From Gammaproteobacteria bacterium (lineage in GTDB: Bacteria > Pseudomonadota > Gammaproteobacteria > Poriferisulfidales > Oxydemutatoraceae): a stretch of 64,000 bases of DNA. The first letter of the stretch is position 1. Every line of letters starts with the position of its first letter. Of the stretch, positions 2,913 through 47,660 are shown piece after piece. The position numbers and the translations under genes are program-made. Location of the stretch: positions 65,098 to 129,097 of the forward strand of contig JAPPQC010000011.1 in NCBI GenBank assembly GCA_028817225.1, written 5' to 3'. Below the pieces are notes generated by a model. That model did not search any database and was not told the DNA's origin. It saw nothing but the letters and a program-made list of their open reading frames with translations.

Positions 2913-3716
2913 ATGAAACTGCTGGACGGAAAACGCGCGCTGATCACCGGCGTCGCCGGTAACCGCTCGATCGCGTGGGGCATCGCGCAGGCGATGCGGC
3001 GCGAAGGCGCCGAACTGGCCTTCACCTTTCAGAACGAGCGGCTGCGCGGGCGCGTCGAGGAACTCGCCGCGCAATGCGGCGCCGGCATCACGCTGCCGTG
3101 CGATGTGCAGAACGACGCCGAAATCACCGCGCTGTTCGCGGCGCTCGGCGAACGCTGGCCGCAACTGGACATCCTGGTGCATTCCATCGCCTACGCGCCG
3201 CGCGAGGAACTCGGCGGCGACTATGTCGGCAACGCCAGCCGCGCCGGCTTCACGACGGCGCACGAGACCAGTTGCTACAGCCTGACGGCGCTGGCGGCGG
3301 GCGCCAGGCCGCTGATGCAATCCGGCGGCGCGGTGCTGACGCTGACCTACTACGGCGCCGAGAAAGTCGTGCCGAACTACAATGTGATGGGGCTTGCCAA
3401 GGCGAGCCTCGAGGCCAATGTTCGCTATCTCGCCGACTGCCTCGGGCCGCAGGGCACGCGCGTTAACGCGATTTCGGCGGGGCCGATCAAGACGCTGGCC
3501 GCCTCCGGCATCGGCGATTTCCGCAAGATGCTGGAGCATGTCGAGCGCACCGCGCCGCTCCGCAGGAATGTCTCGATAGACGAGGTCGGCAACGCCGCGG
3601 CTTTTCTGTGCTCGGACTGCGCCAGCGGCGTCACCGGCGAAATCCTGCATGTGGACGCCGGCTACAACCTCATCGGCATGAGCGCCGGCCCGCAATCGCC
3701 CGCAGGCGGGCGTTAG
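2913..3716 (+). CDS. fabI: enoyl-[acyl-carrier-protein] reductase (NADH) FabI
   Basis: [27 protein letters not shown]...[16 protein letters not shown], a strong FabI match. AGGAGA SD before the ATG. Confidence 0.9.
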
Positions 3717-3755
3717 ACCGACAATCGCCGCCGGGGCGCCGCCCGCAGGCGGGCG

Positions 3756-5015
<1,260 letters not shown>

Positions 5016-5064
5016 GTCGGCGCTCCGGTGCGGTTTCGGTTTCGGTTCCGGTTTCAGTTTCAGT

Positions 5065-6951
5065 TTACAGGGATTCGGTCAACTTCTGCAATTCGTCGGG
5101 ATGCAGCCTGACCTCGAACACATCGCGCAGGCTTTCCAGCACGGCCTGCGTCTCGCGCCCGGCGAACGAGAGGGACTCCGGCTCCAGTTCGTCGCCTTCA
5201 CGCACCGCCGACAACTCGACGATGACCGGCTCGCCGCCGTCCTGCGCGGCGACATAAACCGGCGGCCCGGCAACCGGCGCATCCGTCACAAAGGCGGTTT
5301 TGACGACATCGGCGGGCAATTCGCTGTCGTAGCGGTTGATGTAGCCGGCGTCCACAATCTCAAACACGCCGTCGCCCGCCAACTGGTCCAGCGTCTTGCC
5401 GCCCGTTCTCAGCTGGTTCAGCCATTCCTGGTGGCGCTTGCGCGCCGTCTCCGCGGCGCGGCGAGCGACCAGCGTCGCGACGACATCCTCCCTGACGGCG
5501 TCAAACGCCAGTTGCGTCGAAGGCTGCCGCTCGGCGACGGAGAAAAACAGCGCGTGGCCGCGATCCACCTCGACCAGCCCGCTGTTCAGTTCCTCGCCGG
5601 CCAGCAGGCGCGTCAGCGCGACCTGCCTGGCTCTCGGCCAGGCGAGCAGCCCCTCCTCCTTGTCGGCGTCAAGCCACGGCGTCACCTCGACGGGAATACC
5701 CGGGTACGCCCGGGCCATAATCCGGAAAAACAACTCGCCCTGTTCGTAGGAAATGCGGTTGATGTCGGTTACGAGGCCGGCGTATTGCTGCTCGGCGCGC
5801 TCGTACTTCAGCGACTCCTCCAGTTCCTCGCGCACCTCGTCAAACGTTTTTTCCTCGCGCGGCGTGATTTCGGCAAGTTGAAAAATCTGATAGCCGAATT
5901 CGCCCTCGACCGGCTCGCTGACCTCCCCTTCGGCGAGGCCGAAGACGGCGGCGCGGACGGCCTCGTCGGTGACCTCGTCCTCCGACATCGGCGGCAATTC
6001 ACCGCCGGATTCGGCGGTCAGCGTGTCGTCGGAGTATTCCTTCGCCAACCCGGCGAAATCGGCGCCTTCGGCGATTCTGCCGGTGATCTCATCCAGGCGC
6101 GCGGCCATCCCCCCTTCGTCGCGCTGCTCGCCGGAAACGAGAATGTAGCGGACGCGGCGTTTTTCCGGCGTCGCAAACTCGTCGGCGCGGGTCTCGTAGT
6201 ATTCCCGGACTTCCTCGTCGCCGACGGCCTCGCCGGAGACCAGGTCGTCCACCTGAATCTCGATGTAGCGAAAGCGCACCTGCAGCGGCGACCGGTATTG
6301 CTCCCTGTTCTGCTCGTAATAAGCCTGCGCCTCTTCGTCGCCGACGCCGCCGGGTTCGAGAAAGTTGTCGCTGGCGACGGTCACATAGCGCACCTTCCGC
6401 TCCTGGCTGAACAACTTCTCGTACTGTTCCCGCTCGCTCTTGAGAACGAAACTCGACTCCCGCACCACCTCAAGAAACTGGGAGCGCTTCAGTTGGCGGC
6501 GGTAGTTGTTCTCAAAGGCGGTCTTCGGAATGCGCTGCGATTGCAGGAACAGCGTGTACTGGCGCGGGTCGAAACGGCCGTCGCTCTGAAACTGGGGCAA
6601 TTCGGCAATCATTTTCGCCAGCGTCGAATCCGCCACCTCGTAGCGGTAGCGGTCCGCCGCCTGGGTCAGCAGTTCCTGCCCGAGGCGGTCGCTGATGACC
6701 TGCGACAGAATGGCGTTGTCCGGCGGCATCGCCGCGCCCTGCGACCCGGCCTCGATGTCGCGCTTGCGCTGCGCGAAATTGCTGGCGATCTGGGCGCTGC
6801 TGATCTCGACATCGCCGATGGAAAGCGCCGTCGGCGCGTCGCTCCACCCGAAATACTGCTGAATGCCCCACAGCGCGAAAGGTATCGCAATCAGCGTCAC
6901 GATGGTGTAGGCAATCCAGCCGGTCGCCTTTTCCCTGATTTTCAGAAGCAT
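5065..6951 (-). CDS. ppiD: periplasmic folding chaperone / peptidyl-prolyl isomerase PpiD
   Basis: 628 aa with an N-terminal TM anchor then SurA-N-like and parvulin-like regions. Conserved position after hupB. Confidence 0.85.
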   Translation of the reverse strand: MLLKIREKATGWIAYTIVTLIAIPFALWGIQQYFGWSDAPTALSIGDVEISSAQIASNFAQRKRDIEAGSQGAAMPPDNAILSQVISDRLGQELLTQAADRYRYEVADSTLAKMIAELPQFQSDGRFDPRQYTLFLQSQRIPKTAFENNYRRQLKRSQFLEVVRESSFVLKSEREQYEKLFSQERKVRYVTVASDNFLEPGGVGDEEAQAYYEQNREQYRSPLQVRFRYIEIQVDDLVSGEAVGDEEVREYYETRADEFATPEKRRVRYILVSGEQRDEGGMAARLDEITGRIAEGADFAGLAKEYSDDTLTAESGGELPPMSEDEVTDEAVRAAVFGLAEGEVSEPVEGEFGYQIFQLAEITPREEKTFDEVREELEESLKYERAEQQYAGLVTDINRISYEQGELFFRIMARAYPGIPVEVTPWLDADKEEGLLAWPRARQVALTRLLAGEELNSGLVEVDRGHALFFSVAERQPSTQLAFDAVREDVVATLVARRAAETARKRHQEWLNQLRTGGKTLDQLAGDGVFEIVDAGYINRYDSELPADVVKTAFVTDAPVAGPPVYVAAQDGGEPVIVELSAVREGDELEPESLSFAGRETQAVLESLRDVFEVRLHPDELQKLTESL

Positions 6952-42268: not shown

Positions 42269-42949
42269 TCAATCCTCCTTCTTCTCCTGTTCGCCTTCCG
42301 CCGGCGTCTCTTCGCCGGCCTCCGCCTCGGCGGCCTCGGCGGCTTCTTGCTCTTCCTCCAGCGCGGCGACGCGCGGCTTGATAACCGACACAATCGCATG
42401 GTCAATCTCCTCGCCGTGCGACAGCGCCATCAGCATCACATTATCGGGCAGCGTGATGTCGGACAGGTGCAGCGACTGCCCGAGTTCCAGTTGCGCGATG
42501 TCAACGCCGATGTATTCGGGCAGGTCCTGCGGCAGGCAAGACACCTCGGCCTCGGTCTGCAAGTGGCTGACAATGCCGCCCTGCTGCTTGACGCCGACGC
42601 AGGTGTCCTCGTTGATGAAGTGCAGCGGCACATTCATCGTGATGCGCTTGTCGGTCGAGACGCGCATGAAGTCAATGTGCAGTATCCGCGGCCTGCTCGG
42701 GTGCCTCTGCAAATCGCGCAGAATCACCTTCTCCTTCTTGCGCCCGATCTTCAGCGTCAGGATGTGCGAATAAAACGCCTCGTGCCCAAGGTGGCGTATC
42801 AGTTCGTTGTGTTTCAGCGCGATCGGCACCGCGCCGTGTTCGCCGCCGTAGAGTATCGCCGGCACCAGGCCCTCGCCGCGCAGCCGCCGGCTGAAACGGC
42901 TGCCGCCGCCGTCGCGCGGCTGCGCGCTGATCTCAAAGTCTTTTTGCAT
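42269..42949 (-). CDS. rplY: 50S ribosomal protein L25 / general stress protein Ctc
   Basis: MQKDFEISAQPRDGGGSRFSRRLRGEGLVPAILYGG... with an acidic C-terminal tail. Position upstream of pth as in Pseudomonas. Confidence 0.85.
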   Translation of the reverse strand: MQKDFEISAQPRDGGGSRFSRRLRGEGLVPAILYGGEHGAVPIALKHNELIRHLGHEAFYSHILTLKIGRKKEKVILRDLQRHPSRPRILHIDFMRVSTDKRITMNVPLHFINEDTCVGVKQQGGIVSHLQTEAEVSCLPQDLPEYIGVDIAQLELGQSLHLSDITLPDNVMLMALSHGEEIDHAIVSVIKPRVAALEEEQEAAEAAEAEAGEETPAEGEQEKKED

Positions 42950-43052
42950 GGTTTGTCTCCTTCAATTAATCATGCCGAATGCCTGCGCCGCGGCGCGCGC
43001 ATTTCAGGACAGGCGGCGGCGGTCGCTGAAGCCGTGCGGCGGTGCGCCCGAA

Positions 43053-43301
43053 TCAGCGGCGGCGGGCCGGCGGGAGTGTTGAGGGCGTGCGCCGCCTGCG
43101 AATCTGAACCAGCGACAGCGCCAGTATCAGCGCCAGCGCCGCCAGTGCGGCAGGGCCGAGGGCGCCGCCGCCGCCTCCGCCAGCGGCGGCGGCGGCGAAT
43201 CTTGCCAATGGCCGGGAATGTTTGTTGGCGACAGGGTTTGTTCCGCGCCTGAAAGCGGCGGCGGCGGCGAATCCTGCCGGGCAATCATTTTTCATTTTCA
43301 T
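43053..43301 (-). CDS. hypothetical small protein (82 aa) with C-terminal hydrophobic segment followed by Arg-rich tail
   Basis: MKMKNDCPAGFAAAAAFRRG...GGGGGGALGPAALAALALILALSLVQIRRRRTP. Contains GCGGCGGCGGCGGCGAATC direct repeats. Weak evidence only. Confidence 0.25.
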   Translation of the reverse strand: MKMKNDCPAGFAAAAAFRRGTNPVANKHSRPLARFAAAAAGGGGGGALGPAALAALALILALSLVQIRRRRTPSTLPPARRR

Positions 43302-43923
43302 GCTCTGTTTGTTATTGTGAATCCCGCGTTCCCGACGCAGCCCTCGCGGTCTTGCTTGCAGGCGCTCCGTGCACCGTGCAGCGAGACCGTCGCGGGTGCG
43401 GGCGATTATAGCACCACGCCCCCCGCACCACAAAACCACCGCCCGACGGGCGATTTCCGGCCTCATGGGGCGGCGCGGGCGCGGAAAATGGCGGCACGGC
43501 GCGGCTTTGCAGGGGCGCTTTTGCCCTGCACGGGCCGCCTGCACCACGTACGCCGTTCGTCGGAAGGGATTCTCCGCCACTTCATACACTTGACCTGTTT
43601 TTCCCCGACGATGGCGGTTTTTGGCCATGCCGGGGCGCCGCGATGTGCTTACAATAAGCCTGATGAATAACGGAACACGGACAGATTGTTTGCATGTGGC
43701 GACAGCACGCAACGGCGTCCGGACGAGCGTTGTTGTCTGCGGCGGCATCCGGGCCGTGCCTGTGCGGGCGTTCGCGCCACTGCCTTTGCGGGCGCCGTTA
43801 TTCCCGGCCAACGGTCATTCGTCGGCCAAATGCTACCGCTTGTCGGCTGGCGTGCGCCAAGCCTTGCAAAATCCTTCAGATTGGGTTCTCGCTAAACCTT
43901 GAACCTTAATCGGAGGCAATCAG

Positions 43924-44604
43924 ATGATGGCACCACAAAAAAAGAAACCGCTGCCCGGCCAGCACCGCAAAGTCGAGCCACTCACCCGGAAGATAGAGGC
44001 CGTCGCGCCGCCGCGCCCGCAACTGGAGGTTCTGCAGGAACGCATGAACCAGACGGCAACTGCCGTGCAGGTGGACAAACTGCACGGCGAAGCCATGGGG
44101 CGGATGGATGCAACCAGGGCAGAGATGCACGAACTGCACGGCGAAGCCATGGGGCGGATGGATATTCTGCAAGAGCGCATGGGCCACATGGCAACCAGGG
44201 AAGAGATGCACGAACTGCACGGCGAAGCCATGGGGCGGATAGATGCAACCAGGGCAGAGATGCACAAACTGCACGGCGAAACCATGGGGCGAATAGATAT
44301 TCTGCAAGAGCGCATGGGCCACATGGCAACCAGGGAAGAGATGCACGAACTGCACGGCGAAGCCATGGGGCGGATAGAGATTCTGCAAGAGCGCACGAAG
44401 TCCATGGCAACCACGGCGGATATGAACAAACTGCACGGTGAAGCGATGGAGCGAATCGGCAAGGTGGAAACCTGCATAGGCGAAATAAAGGGCGATTTAA
44501 AGTTCATCAAATGGATTGGAGGCACGCTTGGAATCGCCATCGTTGCCGGACTCATCACCATGATTGCCGGACTCGCCAAAATCATTTTCTTCCCGGTTGT
44601 GTGA
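43924..44604 (+). CDS. histidine-rich tandem-repeat protein with C-terminal transmembrane anchor (XhlA/DUF1640-like tail?)
   Basis: GGAGG SD 6 nt before ATGATG. 226 aa with repeats MHELHGEAMGRMDATRAE / MHELHGEAMGRMDILQERMGHMATREE. C-terminus KFIKWIGGTLGIAIVAGLITMIAGLAKIIFF. The alternative frame 43899..44441 is a repeat shadow. Confidence 0.6.
   Translation: MMAPQKKKPLPGQHRKVEPLTRKIEAVAPPRPQLEVLQERMNQTATAVQVDKLHGEAMGRMDATRAEMHELHGEAMGRMDILQERMGHMATREEMHELHGEAMGRIDATRAEMHKLHGETMGRIDILQERMGHMATREEMHELHGEAMGRIEILQERTKSMATTADMNKLHGEAMERIGKVETCIGEIKGDLKFIKWIGGTLGIAIVAGLITMIAGLAKIIFFPVV
44077..44434 (+). repeat. in-frame tandem repeat, unit about 135 nt (54-nt and 81-nt sub-units), about 2.6 copies
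   Basis: Nucleotide repeats ...GCAACCAGGGCAGAGATGCACGAACTGCACGGCGAAGCCATGGGGCGGATGGAT... recur with few substitutions. Confidence 0.7.
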
Positions 44605-44632
44605 TTTTGGGCGCTGCCGGGCACACTGATTG

Positions 44633-44662
44633 AAAGGGCCGCCTTCGGGCGGCCTTTTTTTG
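44633..44662 (+). terminator. rho-independent terminator
   Basis: GGGCCGCCTTCGGGCGGCC hairpin followed by TTTTTTT, 30 nt after the stop of the repeat protein. Confidence 0.6.
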
Positions 44663-44722
44663 GCGTTGCGGTTTTTTTGCGCCGCGGTTCCGCGCGCGGG
44701 CCGGTTGCGGGGAGCCGCCCCG

Positions 44723-45661
44723 TCAATCCATGAAAAGGCTGCTGATGGACTGTTCGCGGTTGACGCGCTGCATGGCCTGCGCCAGCATCGGCGCGATGCT
44801 GATCTGGCGGATGCGCGGGCACGCCGCCGCCTCCGGCGACAGCGGTATCGTGTCGGTGACGATCAGTTCGTCGAGCGCCGAGGCGGCAATCCGCCCGACC
44901 GCGCCGCCCGACAGCACCGGGTGCGTCGCATAGGCCAGCACCTTGCCGGCGCCCTGCCCTTTCAGCGCCGTCGCCGCCTCGCACAGGGTGCCGGCGGTGT
45001 CCACGATGTCGTCAATGATGACGCACGCCTTGCCGCCGACATCGCCGATGATGTTCATGACCTCGCTTTCGTTCGGCTGCGGGCGGCGCTTGTCTATGAT
45101 GGCGAGGTCGGCGTCGTCGAGGCGCTTGGCGAGCGCCCGCGCCCTGACAACGCCGCCGACATCGGGCGACACGACGATGGTGTTGCGGCAGTCGCCGGCG
45201 CGGATGTCGTCGAGCAGCACCGGCGAGGCGTAGAGGTTGTCCACCGGCAGGTCAAAGAACCCCTGCACCTGGTCGGAGTGCAGGTCCACAATCAGCACGC
45301 GGTTGGCCTGCACGCTGCTGACGATGTTGGCGACGACCTTGGCCGAAATCGGCACCCGCGCATAGTGCGCGCGCCGGTCCTGGCGGCCATAGCCGAAGTA
45401 GGGAATCACCGCGGTAATGCGCCCCGCCGACGCGCGGTGCAGCGCATCAATCATAATCAGCAGTTCCATCAGGTTGTCGCTGCCGGGCGCGCAGGTCGGC
45501 TGCACGATGAACACATCGCGGCCACGGACATTCTCGTGTATCTCGACGCGCACCTCGCCGTCGCTGAAACGGCCGACGGTGGCCTTGCCGAGTTCCAGGC
45601 CGATGTGCGCGGCGACTTTCGCGGCCAGCGCCCGGTTGGCGCTGCCGGTGAACACCGACAT
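44723..45661 (-). CDS. prs: ribose-phosphate pyrophosphokinase
   Basis: [21 protein letters not shown]...[12 protein letters not shown]...PRPP-binding DIVDTAGT. The ORF runs to 45682. Confidence 0.9.
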
Positions 45662-45716
45662 CGTCGCTTCGTGGGAATTCATCGCTGCAACTGTCGCGGG
45701 CCGTTTTTCGGGAAAC

Positions 45717-45802: not shown

Positions 45803-46861
45803 TTATAACGCCTCGCCGCCCTTTTCATGCAAACGGGCGGGCGCGGGCTTGTCGGCGTCTTCGTGCAAGCCGGCGGGCGCGGCCTCGTCGGCGGCCTCGT
45901 GCAAGCCGGCGGGCGCGGCCTCGTCGGCGGCTTCGTGCAGACCGTCGGGCACGGCCTTGTCGGCGTCTTCGTGCAGACCGGCGGGCGCGGCCTCGTCGGC
46001 GGCCTCGCGCAGACACCGGTGCAGCGGCGATTCGGCGACGCCGCGCGCGACAAAACCGCCGAGGCCGGCGGGGTTGCCGCGAACCGCCTCTTCGGCGCCG
46101 CGCTTGCCGTCAAACGCGGCGAAGAAGGCCGAGCCGGAGCCGGTCAGGCGCGGCGCGCCGACGCCGCGCCCGTCAAGCCACGCAAGGCCCTGCGCGATTT
46201 CGGGGCGGCGGCGCGCGGCGATTTCCTGAAAGGCGTTGACCGTCCCGCCGTTGCGGTAATCGCGCATCGTAACCCGCGGAAAGTCGCGGCGCAGGTCGGG
46301 CGCCTGAAACATCTCGCGGGTCGAGAGCGGCGCGGCGGGCGCCAGCACCGCATACCACCGCCGCGGCAGGTGCACCGGGCGCAGATGGTTGCCGGCGCCT
46401 TCCGCCCACGCGCTGCGCCCGTTGACGAAAACCGGCACATCGGCGCCGAGGCGCGCGGCGAGGCGCAGCAGGTCAACGAGCGCGAGGCGGCAGCCCCACA
46501 GGCGGTTCAGCGCCAGCAGCACCGTCGCCGCGTCCGAACTGCCGCCGCCGAGACCGGCGCCGACCGGAATGCGCTTGGCGATGGTGATGTTGGCGCCGCC
46601 CGGCGCTTCGGTTTCGGCCTTCAGCAACAGCGCCGCCTTCAGCGCGAGGTTGTCGTCGCACGCAATCTCCGGCGCGTCGGCGCACGCCACGCGCACATCG
46701 CCGCGCCGGTGGGCGACGATGGAGATTTCATCGCCGTAGTCGAGCAGTTGAAACAGCGTTTGCAGGTTGTGGCGCCCGTTGTCGCGGCGCCCGGTGATGT
46801 GCAGAAAGAGATTCAGTTTGGCGGGCGCCGGCCACCGGGTTTCGCCCGGCGTCGCCGTCAC
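45803..46861 (-). CDS. ispE: 4-diphosphocytidyl-2-C-methyl-D-erythritol kinase with about 65-aa C-terminal tandem-repeat extension
   Basis: GTG start gives (M)TATPGETRWPAPAKLNLFLHITGRRDNGRHNLQTLFQLLDYGD... GHMP kinase motif PVGAGLGGGSSDAA. Tail EAADEAAPAGLH x about 5. Confidence 0.8.
   Translation of the reverse strand: MTATPGETRWPAPAKLNLFLHITGRRDNGRHNLQTLFQLLDYGDEISIVAHRRGDVRVACADAPEIACDDNLALKAALLLKAETEAPGGANITIAKRIPVGAGLGGGSSDAATVLLALNRLWGCRLALVDLLRLAARLGADVPVFVNGRSAWAEGAGNHLRPVHLPRRWYAVLAPAAPLSTREMFQAPDLRRDFPRVTMRDYRNGGTVNAFQEIAARRRPEIAQGLAWLDGRGVGAPRLTGSGSAFFAAFDGKRGAEEAVRGNPAGLGGFVARGVAESPLHRCLREAADEAAPAGLHEDADKAVPDGLHEAADEAAPAGLHEAADEAAPAGLHEDADKPAPARLHEKGGEAL
45835..46012 (-). repeat. 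in-frame 36-nt tandem repeat, about 5 copies, at the 3' end of ispE
   Basis: Plus strand GGGCGCGGCCTCGTCGGCGGCCTCGTGCAAGCCGGC and variants. Encodes the (E/D)A(A/D)(D/K)(E/A)(A/V)P(A/D)GLH repeat. Confidence 0.7.
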
Positions 46862-46928
46862 CGCGCCCTGTCCCGCACAACGCCGCTCCGCATTCCCGGC
46901 GTGTGTCCCGGCCGCCAGGCCATCGCCG

Positions 46929-47660
46929 TCACTGCGGCTTGTCCCGCACGACGCCGCTCCACGACGCAATCGAGATGGAGATGGTGGTGTCGGCGGCGGC
47001 GCCGTTGCCGTCTTGCAGCCGCGACAGGCCGATTTTCTCGGGCAGGTCGTGCAGCACATTCCAGCCGGTGTAGCGCACACGCCAGCCGTCCTGGCTGAAC
47101 GACAGCGTGCGTCCGCTGTCCACATGCGCCTCGCCGGGGCGCGCGCCGTACGCGGGCGCGCCCGCCATCCAGTAGCGCAGGTTGCCGACCGGCACATCGG
47201 TGTACAACAGACTGCTGATCAATTCCTCCGGCGTCGCGGCTTCGGTGCGCCGCCCCGACGCGCCGGTCGCCGCCGCGACGCCGCCGAATTCGCCGTTGAT
47301 GACCATCAGCGTGCCGCCGAGCAGACTGGACAGGCGGATGTCAAAATGCCGTCCGTTCTGCTGCCAGTCAAACTGCCCGCGCCAGCCGGAACCGCTGCGG
47401 CGCACCGCGATGCGCCCGCGCGCGCGCCACGACCGCAGGTTGTCGGCCTGCACGCGCTGCGCCAGCAGGTATTCAATGGACGCCTCGGTGGAGTCTTCCA
47501 CCACCGGCAACTGACGGGCGCAGCCCGCGCACGCCAGCACGGATGCAAGGGCGCACGCCAGCGCGCCCGGTGAAAAAAGCCGCCGTTGCGGTGTTTGTGA
47601 GTGTGGTTGGTTCATGTCATCGGGGATTATAGGGGAAACCGGCGCGCGCGGCATGGCCAT
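46929..47660 (-). CDS. lolB: outer membrane lipoprotein LolB
   Basis: Lipobox LASVLACAGCARQ. Position between ispE and the TPR gene as in Pseudomonas. Start may be the internal MNQPHSQ at 47615. Confidence 0.7.
   Translation of the reverse strand: MAMPRAPVSPIIPDDMNQPHSQTPQRRLFSPGALACALASVLACAGCARQLPVVEDSTEASIEYLLAQRVQADNLRSWRARGRIAVRRSGSGWRGQFDWQQNGRHFDIRLSSLLGGTLMVINGEFGGVAAATGASGRRTEAATPEELISSLLYTDVPVGNLRYWMAGAPAYGARPGEAHVDSGRTLSFSQDGWRVRYTGWNVLHDLPEKIGLSRLQDGNGAAADTTISISIASWSGVVRDKPQ

Follow-up and report, generated by a model that had tools for sequence, protein, structure and literature searches.

The window, a 64,000-nucleotide stretch of a gammaproteobacterial contig (JAPPQC010000011.1), carries between prs and rplY, with prs convergent, a gene whose product is built mostly of short tandem repeats. 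What kind of protein is this, where in the cell would it sit, and is the repeat array genuine? The explanation that accounts best for the observations as a whole, and one that we consider probable, is a length-variable, cassette-borne relative of DUF1640/CCDC90 proteins that forms a tail-anchored inner-membrane rod in the cytoplasm.

The gene and its repeat array

The initial annotation placed a gene at 43924..44604 (+), and this is a genuine coding gene in that frame. It starts with ATGATG and encodes 226 aa; its GC1/2/3 values by codon position are 0.64/0.38/0.69, and +1 is the sole frame that is open in eight of eight related loci. An SD motif, GGAGG, had been described 6 nt from the start; the motif is present (43912-43916), but its spacing to the ATG is 7 nt. 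The overlapping frame 43899..44441 (+) had been dismissed, rightly so given a GC3 of 0.39 (vs. 0.69 in the real frame), an inverted codon-position GC pattern, and stops that interrupt it in paralogs. Two antisense ORFs, 43906..44436 (-) and 43920..44984 (-), were rejected because they too are broken in paralogs and their GC by codon position is wrong. Also rejected was ORF 43053..43811 (-), a gene call at the related locus L001, which has flat GC1/2/3 (0.67/0.64/0.68) and overlaps the conserved leader described below. Searches of the window protein against Pfam, NCBIfam, PHROGs, and PADLOC returned only subthreshold coiled-coil noise. The coding region comprises the following features:

43924..44604 (+): CDS, 226 aa, putative head-less DUF1640/CCDC90-like tail-anchored coiled-coil protein
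43924..44022 (+): N-terminal Lys/Pro-rich segment, residues 1-33, predicted to be disordered (pLDDT <50 for residues 1-34)
44056..44514 (+): repeat array, residues 45-197, the whole of which fits a 9-residue register
44078..44378 (+): near-identical 135-nt (45-aa) tandem duplication (TRF: 2.2 copies, 96% matches, score 567)
44512..44589 (+): C-terminal transmembrane (TM) tail anchor, W197-F222, from hydropathy, followed only by PVV

The array does consist of the 18- and 27-aa units that had been reported, in the order 18, 27, 18, 27, 27 aa, and three nonad types recur within it: ATR(A/E)EMH(E/K)L, HGEAMGR(M/I)D, and ILQERMGHM. The LHGE motif is repeated, as had been noted, but six times rather than about five (four MH[EK]LHGE plus DKLHGE and NKLHGE). 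Alongside these six LHGE modules are six (x)AT(x)(x)(D/E/Q) motifs, with MATREE at residues 89 and 134, MATTAD at 161, and the degenerate copies TATAVQ and DATRAE. At the nucleotide level, TRF finds subperiods of 54 and 81 nt within the 135-nt repeat. The two full 135-nt copies differ from each other at 5 nt, four of these five differences being nonsynonymous, and thus are not a trivial assembly duplicate.

Calling the protein “histidine-rich” is only partly apt: His is moderately abundant (5.8% overall, 9% in the repeats), but Met (9.7% overall, 14% within the repeats) and Glu are richer. Across family members, His makes up 2.2% to 6.8% of the protein, tracking the number of LHGEAM modules per allele, and His/Met richness is not a family-wide property. 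The single His of each module is near-invariant across the family (H144, H171).

Probable relationship to DUF1640/CCDC90 proteins

The tail had been likened to those of DUF1640-type proteins, a guess that profile comparisons support. We retrieved 20 homologs of the window protein, and a search of the family profile against 1.84 billion proteins yielded only 13 representative clusters at E < 1e-10; this very small clade comprises about 20 clusters, and its source is uncultured Gammaproteobacteria throughout. Farther matches of the family profile are DUF1640-like, six of eight matching PF07798. Comparison of the family with these DUF1640-like proteins using hhalign gave a probability of 99.4% (E = 5e-22) via ...RIGKVE..L..IKW-TM-FFP, a score that is inflated because the comparison set was drawn from the family profile's own matches. 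A profile of the DUF1640-like bridging proteins in turn matches PDB 6H9L at 1e-11 and CCDC90B (6H9M) at 5e-4.

PF07798 itself (gathering score 33.5 bits) gives no match to the window protein even at E ≤ 10; head-bearing members of the clade score 18-22 bits, and P0042, a protein reached by the family profile, is above the gathering score at 37.7 bits. The N-terminal head domain is absent from the window protein. Because there is neither a PF07798 match nor a head, the family link is transitive. Bridging forms have a DUF1640-type head together with the same linker and the same tail. One head-bearing protein of 128 aa, at locus L013, matches the window protein by BLASTP (8e-23 and 2e-17), and its head aligns with PF07798 positions 8-41. 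Homology to the head-bearing relatives (P0018-20, P0024, and the L013 protein) begins at residue 14 with “PLxRKVEA,” and residues 1-13 (MMAPQKKKPLPGQ) stand where the DUF1640 head domain would be. A profile search with the N-terminal region gave no matches, and that profile also missed the family itself. Judged from these comparisons, the window protein appears to be a divergent, head-less, repeat-expanded member of the bacterial DUF1640/CCDC90-like (MCUR1/CCDC90B) branch, by a link that passes through coiled-coil and TM regions, where compositional matches arise easily.

The bacterial DUF1640/CCDC90-like proteins (PF07798; e.g., P0042 and PDB 6H9L, an “uncharacterized protein”) have in common with it a small size (about 130-200 aa), the absence of a signal peptide, a stalk of short tandem modules with A-T-K/R-x-D/E motifs, and a membrane-proximal “...RIGxVEGxL..IKW” that leads into a single C-terminal TM helix ending in FFP. 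Unlike them, the window protein has a Lys/Pro-rich tip in place of the head (xxLxEAGxxxxQAEAxxxAI), is missed by the Pfam model, and has a stalk that is mostly a clade-specific, Met/His-rich LHGEAMxRM hendecad. Human MCUR1/CCDC90B and yeast Put6/Put7 (Fmp32) likewise share the stalk, beta-layer, and C-terminal TM helix, facing the matrix or cytoplasm. Only the eukaryotic proteins, however, have a mitochondrial targeting sequence, an MCU-contacting head, and roles in the MCU complex or in proline use; their partners do not exist here, and the window protein is headless. Bacterial DUF1640 proteins have so far been assigned no function.

Topology and a model of the rod

The single C-terminal TM helix of the initial annotation is evident in the hydropathy profile (Kyte-Doolittle 19-residue maximum 2.38, residues 204-222). 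In the first 60 aa there is no hydrophobic segment or signal peptide (Kyte-Doolittle maximum -0.14). Residues W197 and F222 do not vary within the family, and the IKW...FFP motif is conserved. The AF2 monomer model is all-helical and of low confidence (pLDDT 50), with a helix at 192-222. Eukaryotic family members face the mitochondrial matrix (PMC7519068, PMC6801532), the topological counterpart of the bacterial cytoplasm. Taken with the absent signal peptide, this literature indicates that the stalk is most likely on the cytoplasmic rather than the periplasmic side.

Beta-layers have the consensus [aliphatic]-A-T-K-[polar]-[DE] and are found where the DUF1640 stalk begins (PMC4786415); the MATREE and MATTAD motifs of the window protein agree with this published consensus. 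One family member (P0017) matches the crystal structure of Tcar0761 (5APZ) nonad by nonad (E = 9e-8), whereas the family profile reaches only E = 1.8 against 5APZ, and the motif occurs in just every second or third nonad of the array. Tcar0761, from Thermosinus carboxydivorans, belongs to a DUF3782-related coiled-coil family rather than to DUF1640 (Hartmann et al. 2016, PMC4786415). The window protein appears to share with this alpha/beta coiled coil the MATKDD-type motifs and 9-residue register (nonads MATREEMHE and MATTADMNK), but Tcar0761 has consecutive nonads, whereas here the motif comes every 18 or 27 residues with hendecad and heptad segments between. The beta-layer (MATKDD-like) character of the ATREE motif had gone unmentioned in the initial annotation.

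Because the AF2 model is of a monomer only, we infer the oligomeric state, the beta-layers, and the register. The 27-aa unit would consist of a beta-layer nonad (MGH-MAT-REE), a hendecad (MHELHGEAMGR, with core M/L/H/A), and a heptad (MDILQER), and the 18-aa unit would lack one 9-residue block but otherwise match it. Solved relatives suggest that the rod may be a homotrimer of parallel chains, containing three to four beta-layers and, in each hendecad, a ring of the conserved His. Its biochemical role would most likely be that of a membrane-anchored scaffold or spacer, with the basic, Pro-rich N-terminal tip or the rod surface recruiting a partner.

Conserved upstream DNA and a candidate cassette

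Conservation around the gene extends well beyond the ORF and defines these elements:

43548..43703 (+): distal conserved upstream block, containing TTCGTCGG, CACTTGAC, and GTGCTTACAAT
43704..43803 (+): variable spacer between the conserved upstream blocks, from alignments
43804..43868 (+): near-invariant proximal leader block, with a second TTCGTCGG and then TTGTCGGC 21 nt downstream
43873..43916 (+): candidate SD-sequestering hairpin, in which anti-SD UCCUUCA pairs with SD GGAGG (43912-43916)
44632..44662 (unstranded): intrinsic terminator hairpin AAAGGGCCGCC-UUCG-GGCGGCCUUUUUUU, from folding, flanked by an A-tract and a U-tract

The upstream homology starts abruptly at GTACGCCGTTCGTCGG. The distal block is 74%-76% identical to DNA upstream of paralogs in unrelated contexts (L002, L009, L010, and L014). 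It could act as a promoter or operator, or belong to a long leader as its 5' portion; a search of the + strand for a sigma-70 consensus gave nothing. In the window, L001, and L005, lineage-specific insertions add ~85 nt to the spacer. In the proximal leader block, only two of the first 30 columns in an alignment of six leaders vary, compared with CDS identity of only about 71%. Because it is conserved above the level of the CDS and has no Rfam match (Rfam 15 gave no covariance-model match at E ≤ 1 to 43500-43923), the leader is a candidate new regulatory element. A covariance model of the leader, searched against the window and fetched loci, found copies only upstream of family genes. The motif TTCGTCGG has 11 matches in the window vs. 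4 expected and is not clearly enriched, as two of 100 shuffles reach 11. A 21-codon leader uORF (ATG at 43830) was considered and rejected, given variable columns of 9/7/7 by codon position, the lack of an SD, and a frameshift in L014. Neither the conserved leader nor the multi-locus, recombining family was part of the initial annotation.

The hairpin, which would cover the SD, is predicted in all six leaders (-13.6 to -27.3 kcal/mol, z -1.2 to -6.3) and suggests translational control. Across these leaders, 96% of cells are paired and two pairs show compensatory changes, but covariation support is weak because 34 of 500 shuffles equal its score. Between cassettes from different contexts, conservation ends with the terminator, which probably works in both directions and serves the window gene as well as the convergent prs.

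The gene is accompanied by ~380 nt of upstream sequence and by the terminator in at least four genomic contexts. Scanning genome contigs gave only two loci, and scans of metagenome contigs (with a leader 22-mer and with protein patterns) gave no matches. We envisage a self-contained cassette in which the conserved upstream blocks, SD-occluding hairpin, ORF, and terminator would together drive expression, and copies of which occupy several sites on the chromosome within a narrow lineage of Gammaproteobacteria that are uncultured and apparently associated with animals. At L010, the leader and N-terminal 16 aa are fused to a SERTA-motif protein, and we considered whether they might form a cargo or secretion cassette. 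This idea was rejected: the right-hand portion of L010, joined at position 3505, is genomic DNA of a metazoan, so the contig is most likely chimeric. The SERTAD ORF there matches a longer native protein at 99% identity; downstream of it come an AT-rich 3' UTR containing AATAAA signals and, after that, an intron-containing GTPBP-like gene.

Length variation and mosaicism

Copy-number variability, which the near-perfect repeats had been taken to imply, is seen when the prs–rplY locus is compared between independent assemblies. Alleles there span 136 to 226 aa, and every difference in length is a multiple of 9 aa; the lengths were taken from short-read metagenome assemblies, in which repeats can collapse. 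In L001, the flanks are 99.6%-99.9% identical to the window and exactly 135 nt are missing from the repeat. In addition, TM tails are exchanged between paralogous loci. We suggest that unequal recombination between near-identical repeats would shift rod length in 9-aa steps and that gene conversion between paralogs would exchange the tails.

A rival explanation is that the repeat number of the window, or the differences between alleles, arose through expansion or collapse of the 135-nt repeat during assembly. Most variant alleles are on 1-2 kb contigs produced by short-read assemblers, and one sequence (P0027) is a visibly palindromic mis-assembly of the window gene. Even so, we regard an artefact as unlikely, given that the 135-nt copies of the window are distinguished by the five differences noted above, the 181-aa allele is on a 109-kb contig with flanks 99.6%-99.9% identical, the 136-aa allele was found in three samples and with two assembly pipelines, and older paralogs have clearly different module orders.

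Alternative explanations

The composition of the repeats invites a different reading, in which the protein is a Met/His-rich binder of Cu(I), Ag(I), or Zn and uses the regularly spaced His, Met, and Glu residues of its MHELHGEAMGRMD modules as ligands, either on the helix surface (SilE/PcoE-type HxxM/MxxH sites) or in His3/Met3 layers of a trimer core. Such binding would be compatible with a coiled coil. SilE/PcoE and CopA/CopB are secreted periplasmic copper or silver binders from metal-resistance operons, and the known Met-rich copper-resistance proteins are periplasmic. The window protein resembles SilE/PcoE and CopA/CopB in its tandem short Met/His/Glu-rich motifs, but it lacks a signal peptide, shows no homology to their sequences, and is not part of a metal-resistance operon: cop, cus, and sil genes are found in none of five genomic contexts, and Pfam and NCBIfam give no metal-resistance family. 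The reading gains from the Met and His content of the repeats, from the near-invariance of the L-H His in each module, from its core-flanking hendecad position in the proposed register, and from the occurrence in the window protein of MxxxH, HxxH, HxxxM, and MxxM spacings. It loses from the presence of Leu, Ile, or Val in more distant relatives at the Met positions of this clade and from a His content that varies with module number. On balance we find metal binding distinctly unlikely.

A length-variable stalk at the surface or in the periplasm, which had been proposed for this protein, would have its N-terminus outside and serve envelope spacing or host contact, with antigenic or length variation. 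In-frame repeat polymorphism and tail swapping are indeed reminiscent of contingency loci for surface proteins, and the lineage appears to be host-associated (metazoan DNA is co-assembled in L010). However, with neither a signal peptide nor an N-terminal hydrophobic segment, a positive flank (KGDLKFIKW) before the TM helix and only ~4 residues after it, and a matrix- or cytoplasm-facing topology in the family, we judge this very improbable. Least credible, and in our opinion scarcely worth entertaining, is a phage-derived, lysis-associated tail-anchored protein like XhlA/holin (whose tail anchors the initial annotation had also mentioned as similar) or DUF2730. XhlA (PF10779) and DUF2730 proteins are short too, their coiled coil leading into a C-terminal TM helix, and there are faint matches to XhlA (E = 1.2), to a phrog_689 holin (E = 0.012), and, in 14 of 20 members, to DUF2730 (best E = 9e-4). 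All of these fall under curated cut-offs (9.7 bits vs. 34.7 for XhlA); relatives occur in none of the IMG/VR contigs and in none of 50,697 phage genomes, and the contexts are housekeeping only, without phage genes, the window gene itself being between prs and rplY.

Implications

The cytoplasmic, tail-anchored rod related to DUF1640/CCDC90 proteins is thus the reading that we favor, and these findings do not overturn current understanding. A bolder version, in our view a long shot, would have the ~1.1-kb unit, with its upstream blocks, riboregulated leader, ORF, and terminator, as a cassette that spread among several chromosomal sites of an animal-associated lineage, diversifies in the manner of a contingency locus by 9-aa repeat steps and tail conversion, and encodes a trimeric “ruler,” anchored in the cytoplasmic membrane, with stacked metal-binding His/Met layers; if true, this would be a new functional class of DUF1640 protein with its own undescribed cis-regulatory RNA. 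The DUF1640/CCDC90-like family takes in human mitochondrial MCUR1 and CCDC90B. Natural alleles of one locus that differ by exact 9-residue steps of the rod, together with head-less and head-bearing paralogs, provide a ready deletion series for the stalk and head, and the clade is a natural test of how beta-layers, hendecads, and heptads combine within one fiber.

Reading frame and repeat array

43924..44604, +, coding sequence of 226 aa, start ATGATG
43912-43916, +, SD sequence GGAGG, 7-nt spacer to the start

The ORF is a genuine gene, read in this frame. Its GC content at the three codon positions (0.64/0.38/0.69) matches the coding pattern of its neighbours (0.68/0.45/0.89 in prs), with a lower GC3, and frame +1 alone is open from end to end in eight related loci, each of the remaining five frames being broken in some paralog. 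The initial annotation had discarded an alternative frame (43899..44441), and correctly so: GC3 there is 0.39 versus 0.69 in the real frame. The gene region (43900-44650) has 54-61% GC versus 65-70% for its neighbours, and a GC3 of 0.69 versus 0.84-0.89, which is in keeping with a cassette that has had a separate history, not with a long-established core gene.

Tandem Repeats Finder detected a repeat with a period of 135 nt (2.2 copies, 96% identity, score 567) and, within it, sub-periods of 54 and 81 nt. In the protein, the units run 18, 27, 18, 27, and 27 aa. A 9-residue register accommodates all of residues 45-197, using three types of nonad (9-residue repeat): ATR(A/E)EMH(E/K)L, HGEAMGR(M/I)D, and ILQERMGHM. 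The repeat protein initially described, with its 18- and 27-aa units, LHGE motifs (six in all), and one C-terminal hydrophobic helix, is real and was well characterized. Calling it histidine-rich is only moderately apt, because His (5.8% overall, up to 9% in the repeats) lies below Met (9.7% and up to 14%, respectively); Glu is at 11.5%.

Family membership

Our best reading, based on sequence comparison, is that the protein would be a new variant within the DUF1640/CCDC90-like family of tail-anchored coiled-coil proteins, one that lacks the head and has an expanded repeat array. Searches of the protein against Pfam, NCBIfam, PHROGs, and PADLOC returned only sub-threshold coiled-coil noise. Among 5.8 billion proteins there were 20 clusters of homologs, all from metagenomes or MAGs and labelled Gammaproteobacteria; a profile search run exhaustively over 1.84 billion representatives gave only 13 clusters at E<1e-10, and two loci were found in GTDB species representatives. 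Weaker profile matches were small proteins (120-200 aa) that are built alike and match PF07798 (CCDC90-like/DUF1640); P0042 is above the gathering score, and six of eight weaker-match proteins score E<1e-3. The family profile matches a profile of these eight with a probability of 99.4% (E=5e-22), in an alignment that runs through '...AMERIGKVE..GDL..IKW-TM-FFP', and the profile of the eight reaches 1e-11 against PDB 6H9L and 5e-4 against human CCDC90B (6H9M).

Bridging members (P0018-20, P0024, and a 128-aa protein at 1616-2002 of locus L013) have a DUF1640-type head, the usual N-terminal domain ('LAEQ..L.QAG.P.AQAEAIAKAIHD'), followed by 'PLARKVEA..P.P.LEVLEERVKHTAT', at least one 'MNELH..AM.R' module, and then the family tail. 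Their heads align to PF07798 positions 8-41, below cut-off. The window protein matches the 128-aa protein by BLASTP at 8e-23 and 2e-17, and its first 13 residues (MMAPQKKKPLPGQ) take the position of the head. On these comparisons, the window protein is a head-less, repeat-expanded offshoot.

Nonads and proposed beta-layers

Homology suggests that the coiled coil is probably trimeric alpha/beta, and the beta-layers and register proposed here have the same basis. Beta-layers have the consensus [aliphatic]-A-T-K-[polar]-[DE] and are located at the stalk start in DUF1640 membrane proteins; the nonad fibre structure of Tcar0761, with the repeat MATKDDIAN, has been solved (Hartmann et al., eLife 2016, PMC4786415). 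Motifs of the beta-layer type in the window protein are two copies of MATREE, a single MATTAD, and three degenerate versions. In P0017, also of the family, five nonads follow one another directly (MATKEQMAQ three times, then MATKEQMSQ and MATRAEMYK), and this protein aligns nonad by nonad to the Tcar0761 structure 5APZ (E=9.3e-8).

In the proposed register, the 27-aa unit would comprise a nonad (MGH-MAT-REE, as a-b-c-beta1-3-e-f-g), a hendecad (MHELHGEAMGR, with M, L, H, and A at a, d, e, and h), and a heptad (MDILQER). Dropping one 9-residue block (ILQERMGHM) would give the 18-aa unit, with a plain heptad (MDATRAE) in place of heptad plus nonad. Two His residues that are nearly invariant in the family (H144, H171) would sit core-flanking in the presumed trimer. 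For the monomer, AF2 predicts an all-helical structure (pLDDT 50).

Genomic contexts and the cassette

The window gene sits between rplY and prs, inside a conserved ispE-tRNA-prs-rplY-pth-ychF row.

42269-42949, -, rplY, on one side of the family gene
44723-45682, -, prs, convergent with the family gene
44632-44662, between the convergent family gene and prs, strong terminator hairpin with U-run (A-tract on one side, U-tract on the other)
43556-43563 and 43818-43825, TTCGTCGG copies, one in each conserved upstream block
43839-43846, TTGTCGGC, 21 nt past the second TTCGTCGG
L002-4 and L012, homologs behind a Peripla_BP_6 gene, upstream of rpoD-dnaG
L008 and L009, homologs beside a TonB-dependent receptor and thiC
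L011, homolog adjoining fxsA
L013, tandem pair adjoining dsbD/ahpC
L002 2164-2877, 2991-3809, and 6433-7206, L010 856-1608, and L012 796-1575, a separate set of paralogous proteins (237-272 aa), all with a signal peptide, in the PBP/rpoD context

The best reading of these loci is that the family gene belongs to a recombining cassette, present in several copies, whose conserved leader is a candidate for translational control. Both the terminator and ~380 nt of upstream DNA are conserved in every head-less copy for which upstream DNA is available (L002/L003, L005, L009, L010, L014); the shared sequence has a sharp left edge at GTACGCCGTTCGTCGG (43548) and extends as far as the terminator. The leader is missing from the head-bearing paralogs (L011, L013). 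Among paralogs with only ~71% identity in their CDSs, identity in the proximal leader (43804-43923) is 82-92%, and its initial 30 columns are almost invariant. It has no Rfam match, and a promoter/terminator scan found no promoter for the family gene. A hairpin pairing an anti-SD with the SD is predicted in all six leaders (-13.6 to -27.3 kcal/mol), with 96% of cells paired and two compensatory pairs, both in one sequence; it is a candidate only, because 34 of 500 shuffles equal its compensatory score. A 21-codon uORF embedded in the leader was rejected, as no coding signature was found in it. The TTCGTCGG and TTGTCGGC sites may be a regulator-binding direct repeat; the third site is a perfect TTCGTCGG in L010, and the enrichment of the motif in the window (11 matches vs. 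4 expected) is not convincing. The terminator, which the scan did not report on the + strand, probably serves both the family gene and prs.

Several other features adjoin these genes. Between rplY and the cassette lie ~600 nt (42950-43547; 66-70% GC) with simple repeats (CCAGCG, GCG), in which we found no gene and no Rfam match. A minus-strand ORF that gene callers place across this stretch and the leader (43053..43811; 231-252 aa) looks spurious, with flat codon-position GC. Directly upstream of the cassette and behind the Peripla_BP_6 gene, at L002 ~5300-5345 and L010 3090-3145, is a short ORF start (MALLEVSGLSKRFGGLGAG) that, read by eye, resembles the N-terminus of a LivG-type ABC ATPase and stops where cassette homology begins, which suggests that the cassette may have inserted into, or replaced, a transporter gene. 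The 237-272 aa paralogs, which flank family genes and have no Pfam match (two are 63% identical), may be small outer-membrane beta-barrels. The two tandem head-bearing paralogs of L013 (1616-2803; 128 and 177 aa) are separated by a 49-aa ORF (2046-2195) that encodes a single hydrophobic helix and a tail rich in Lys, and the group adjoins dsbD and an AhpC/TSA peroxiredoxin gene.

In L010 (ENA ERZ23500039, SHAF22-1_SAMEA7723732 scaffold_716; region 3459-5977), an in-frame fusion joins the family leader and first 16 codons of a P0017-like gene to a SERTA-motif protein (PF06031, 35.7 bits). The contig is otherwise metazoan; downstream of the ORF come an AT-rich 3' UTR, which has AATAAA signals, and then an intron-containing GTPBP1/2-like gene. 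A longer native protein (P0065) matches the SERTA-motif ORF at 99% identity, and microhomology at the junction is only ~5 nt. Because the contig is most likely chimeric, it is no evidence for the leader or N-terminus as a cargo module, and we rejected that idea. If supported by reads, it would be a symbiont-host DNA junction.

Length polymorphism and tail exchange

Alleles and length variants all differ by multiples of 9 aa. The flanks of L001, a 109-kb contig, are 99.6-99.9% identical to the window, and its gene is shorter by exactly 135 nt, with a deletion point that is ambiguous within the repeat. Other assemblies have 136-, 163-, and 169-aa alleles at the prs-adjacent locus (the 136-aa allele in three samples and two assembly pipelines), and a further variant is 208 aa; all of these lengths come from short-read assemblies and so could reflect repeat collapse. 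A warning comes from P0027 (106 aa), which begins as the family N-terminus and continues in the gene's own reverse-complement frame (…QTATAVQFVHLHGSCRL…), the signature of palindromic/hairpin mis-assembly at this repeat-bearing locus. Assembly artefact is possible for individual allele lengths, but it does not explain the existence of the repeats, given that the two 135-nt copies in the window differ at 5 nt and that module order is clearly different in older paralogs.

The orthologous locus L005 has a different TM tail (IKWTLSVFVAPL...FFP), 91% identical to that at the PBP/rpoD locus, and the window tail is 85% identical to that at the TonB-receptor/ThiC locus. Such identities across loci point to gene conversion between paralogs.

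The 3' end of the ispE ORF (45803..47197, -) holds a 36-nt tandem repeat (45824-46011; 5.2 copies, 86% matches) encoding AAPAGLHE(A/D)ADE-type units that extend IspE at its C-terminus. In L001 and L005 the called ORFs are 352 and 364 aa, and the extension may be another in-frame repeat of strain-variable number.

Topology and proposed role

The only hydrophobic helix of the window protein is C-terminal (residues 204-222; Kyte-Doolittle maximum 2.38), and on the same scale there is no hydrophobic segment at the N-terminus. The initial annotation had offered a surface or periplasmic stalk, an XhlA/holin-associated or DUF1640-type tail anchor, and metal binding as possibilities. The stalk is contradicted by topology: because the protein has no signal peptide, a basic flank precedes the TM helix, PVV alone follows it, and eukaryotic relatives are oriented toward the mitochondrial matrix according to the literature, the rod is most likely cytoplasmic. 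Nor is a phage XhlA/holin reading supported, given that the matches were only sub-threshold, relatives were absent from the viral contigs and phage genomes searched, and family loci have no phage context. Metal binding by the His/Met modules is plausible from residue spacing and the conserved His, and would be compatible with the coiled-coil model, but a signal peptide and a metal operon are both lacking, and His/Met content rises with the number of modules. Our favoured reading is that the protein would act as a scaffold or spacer of varying length, tethered to the membrane and lying in the cytoplasm.
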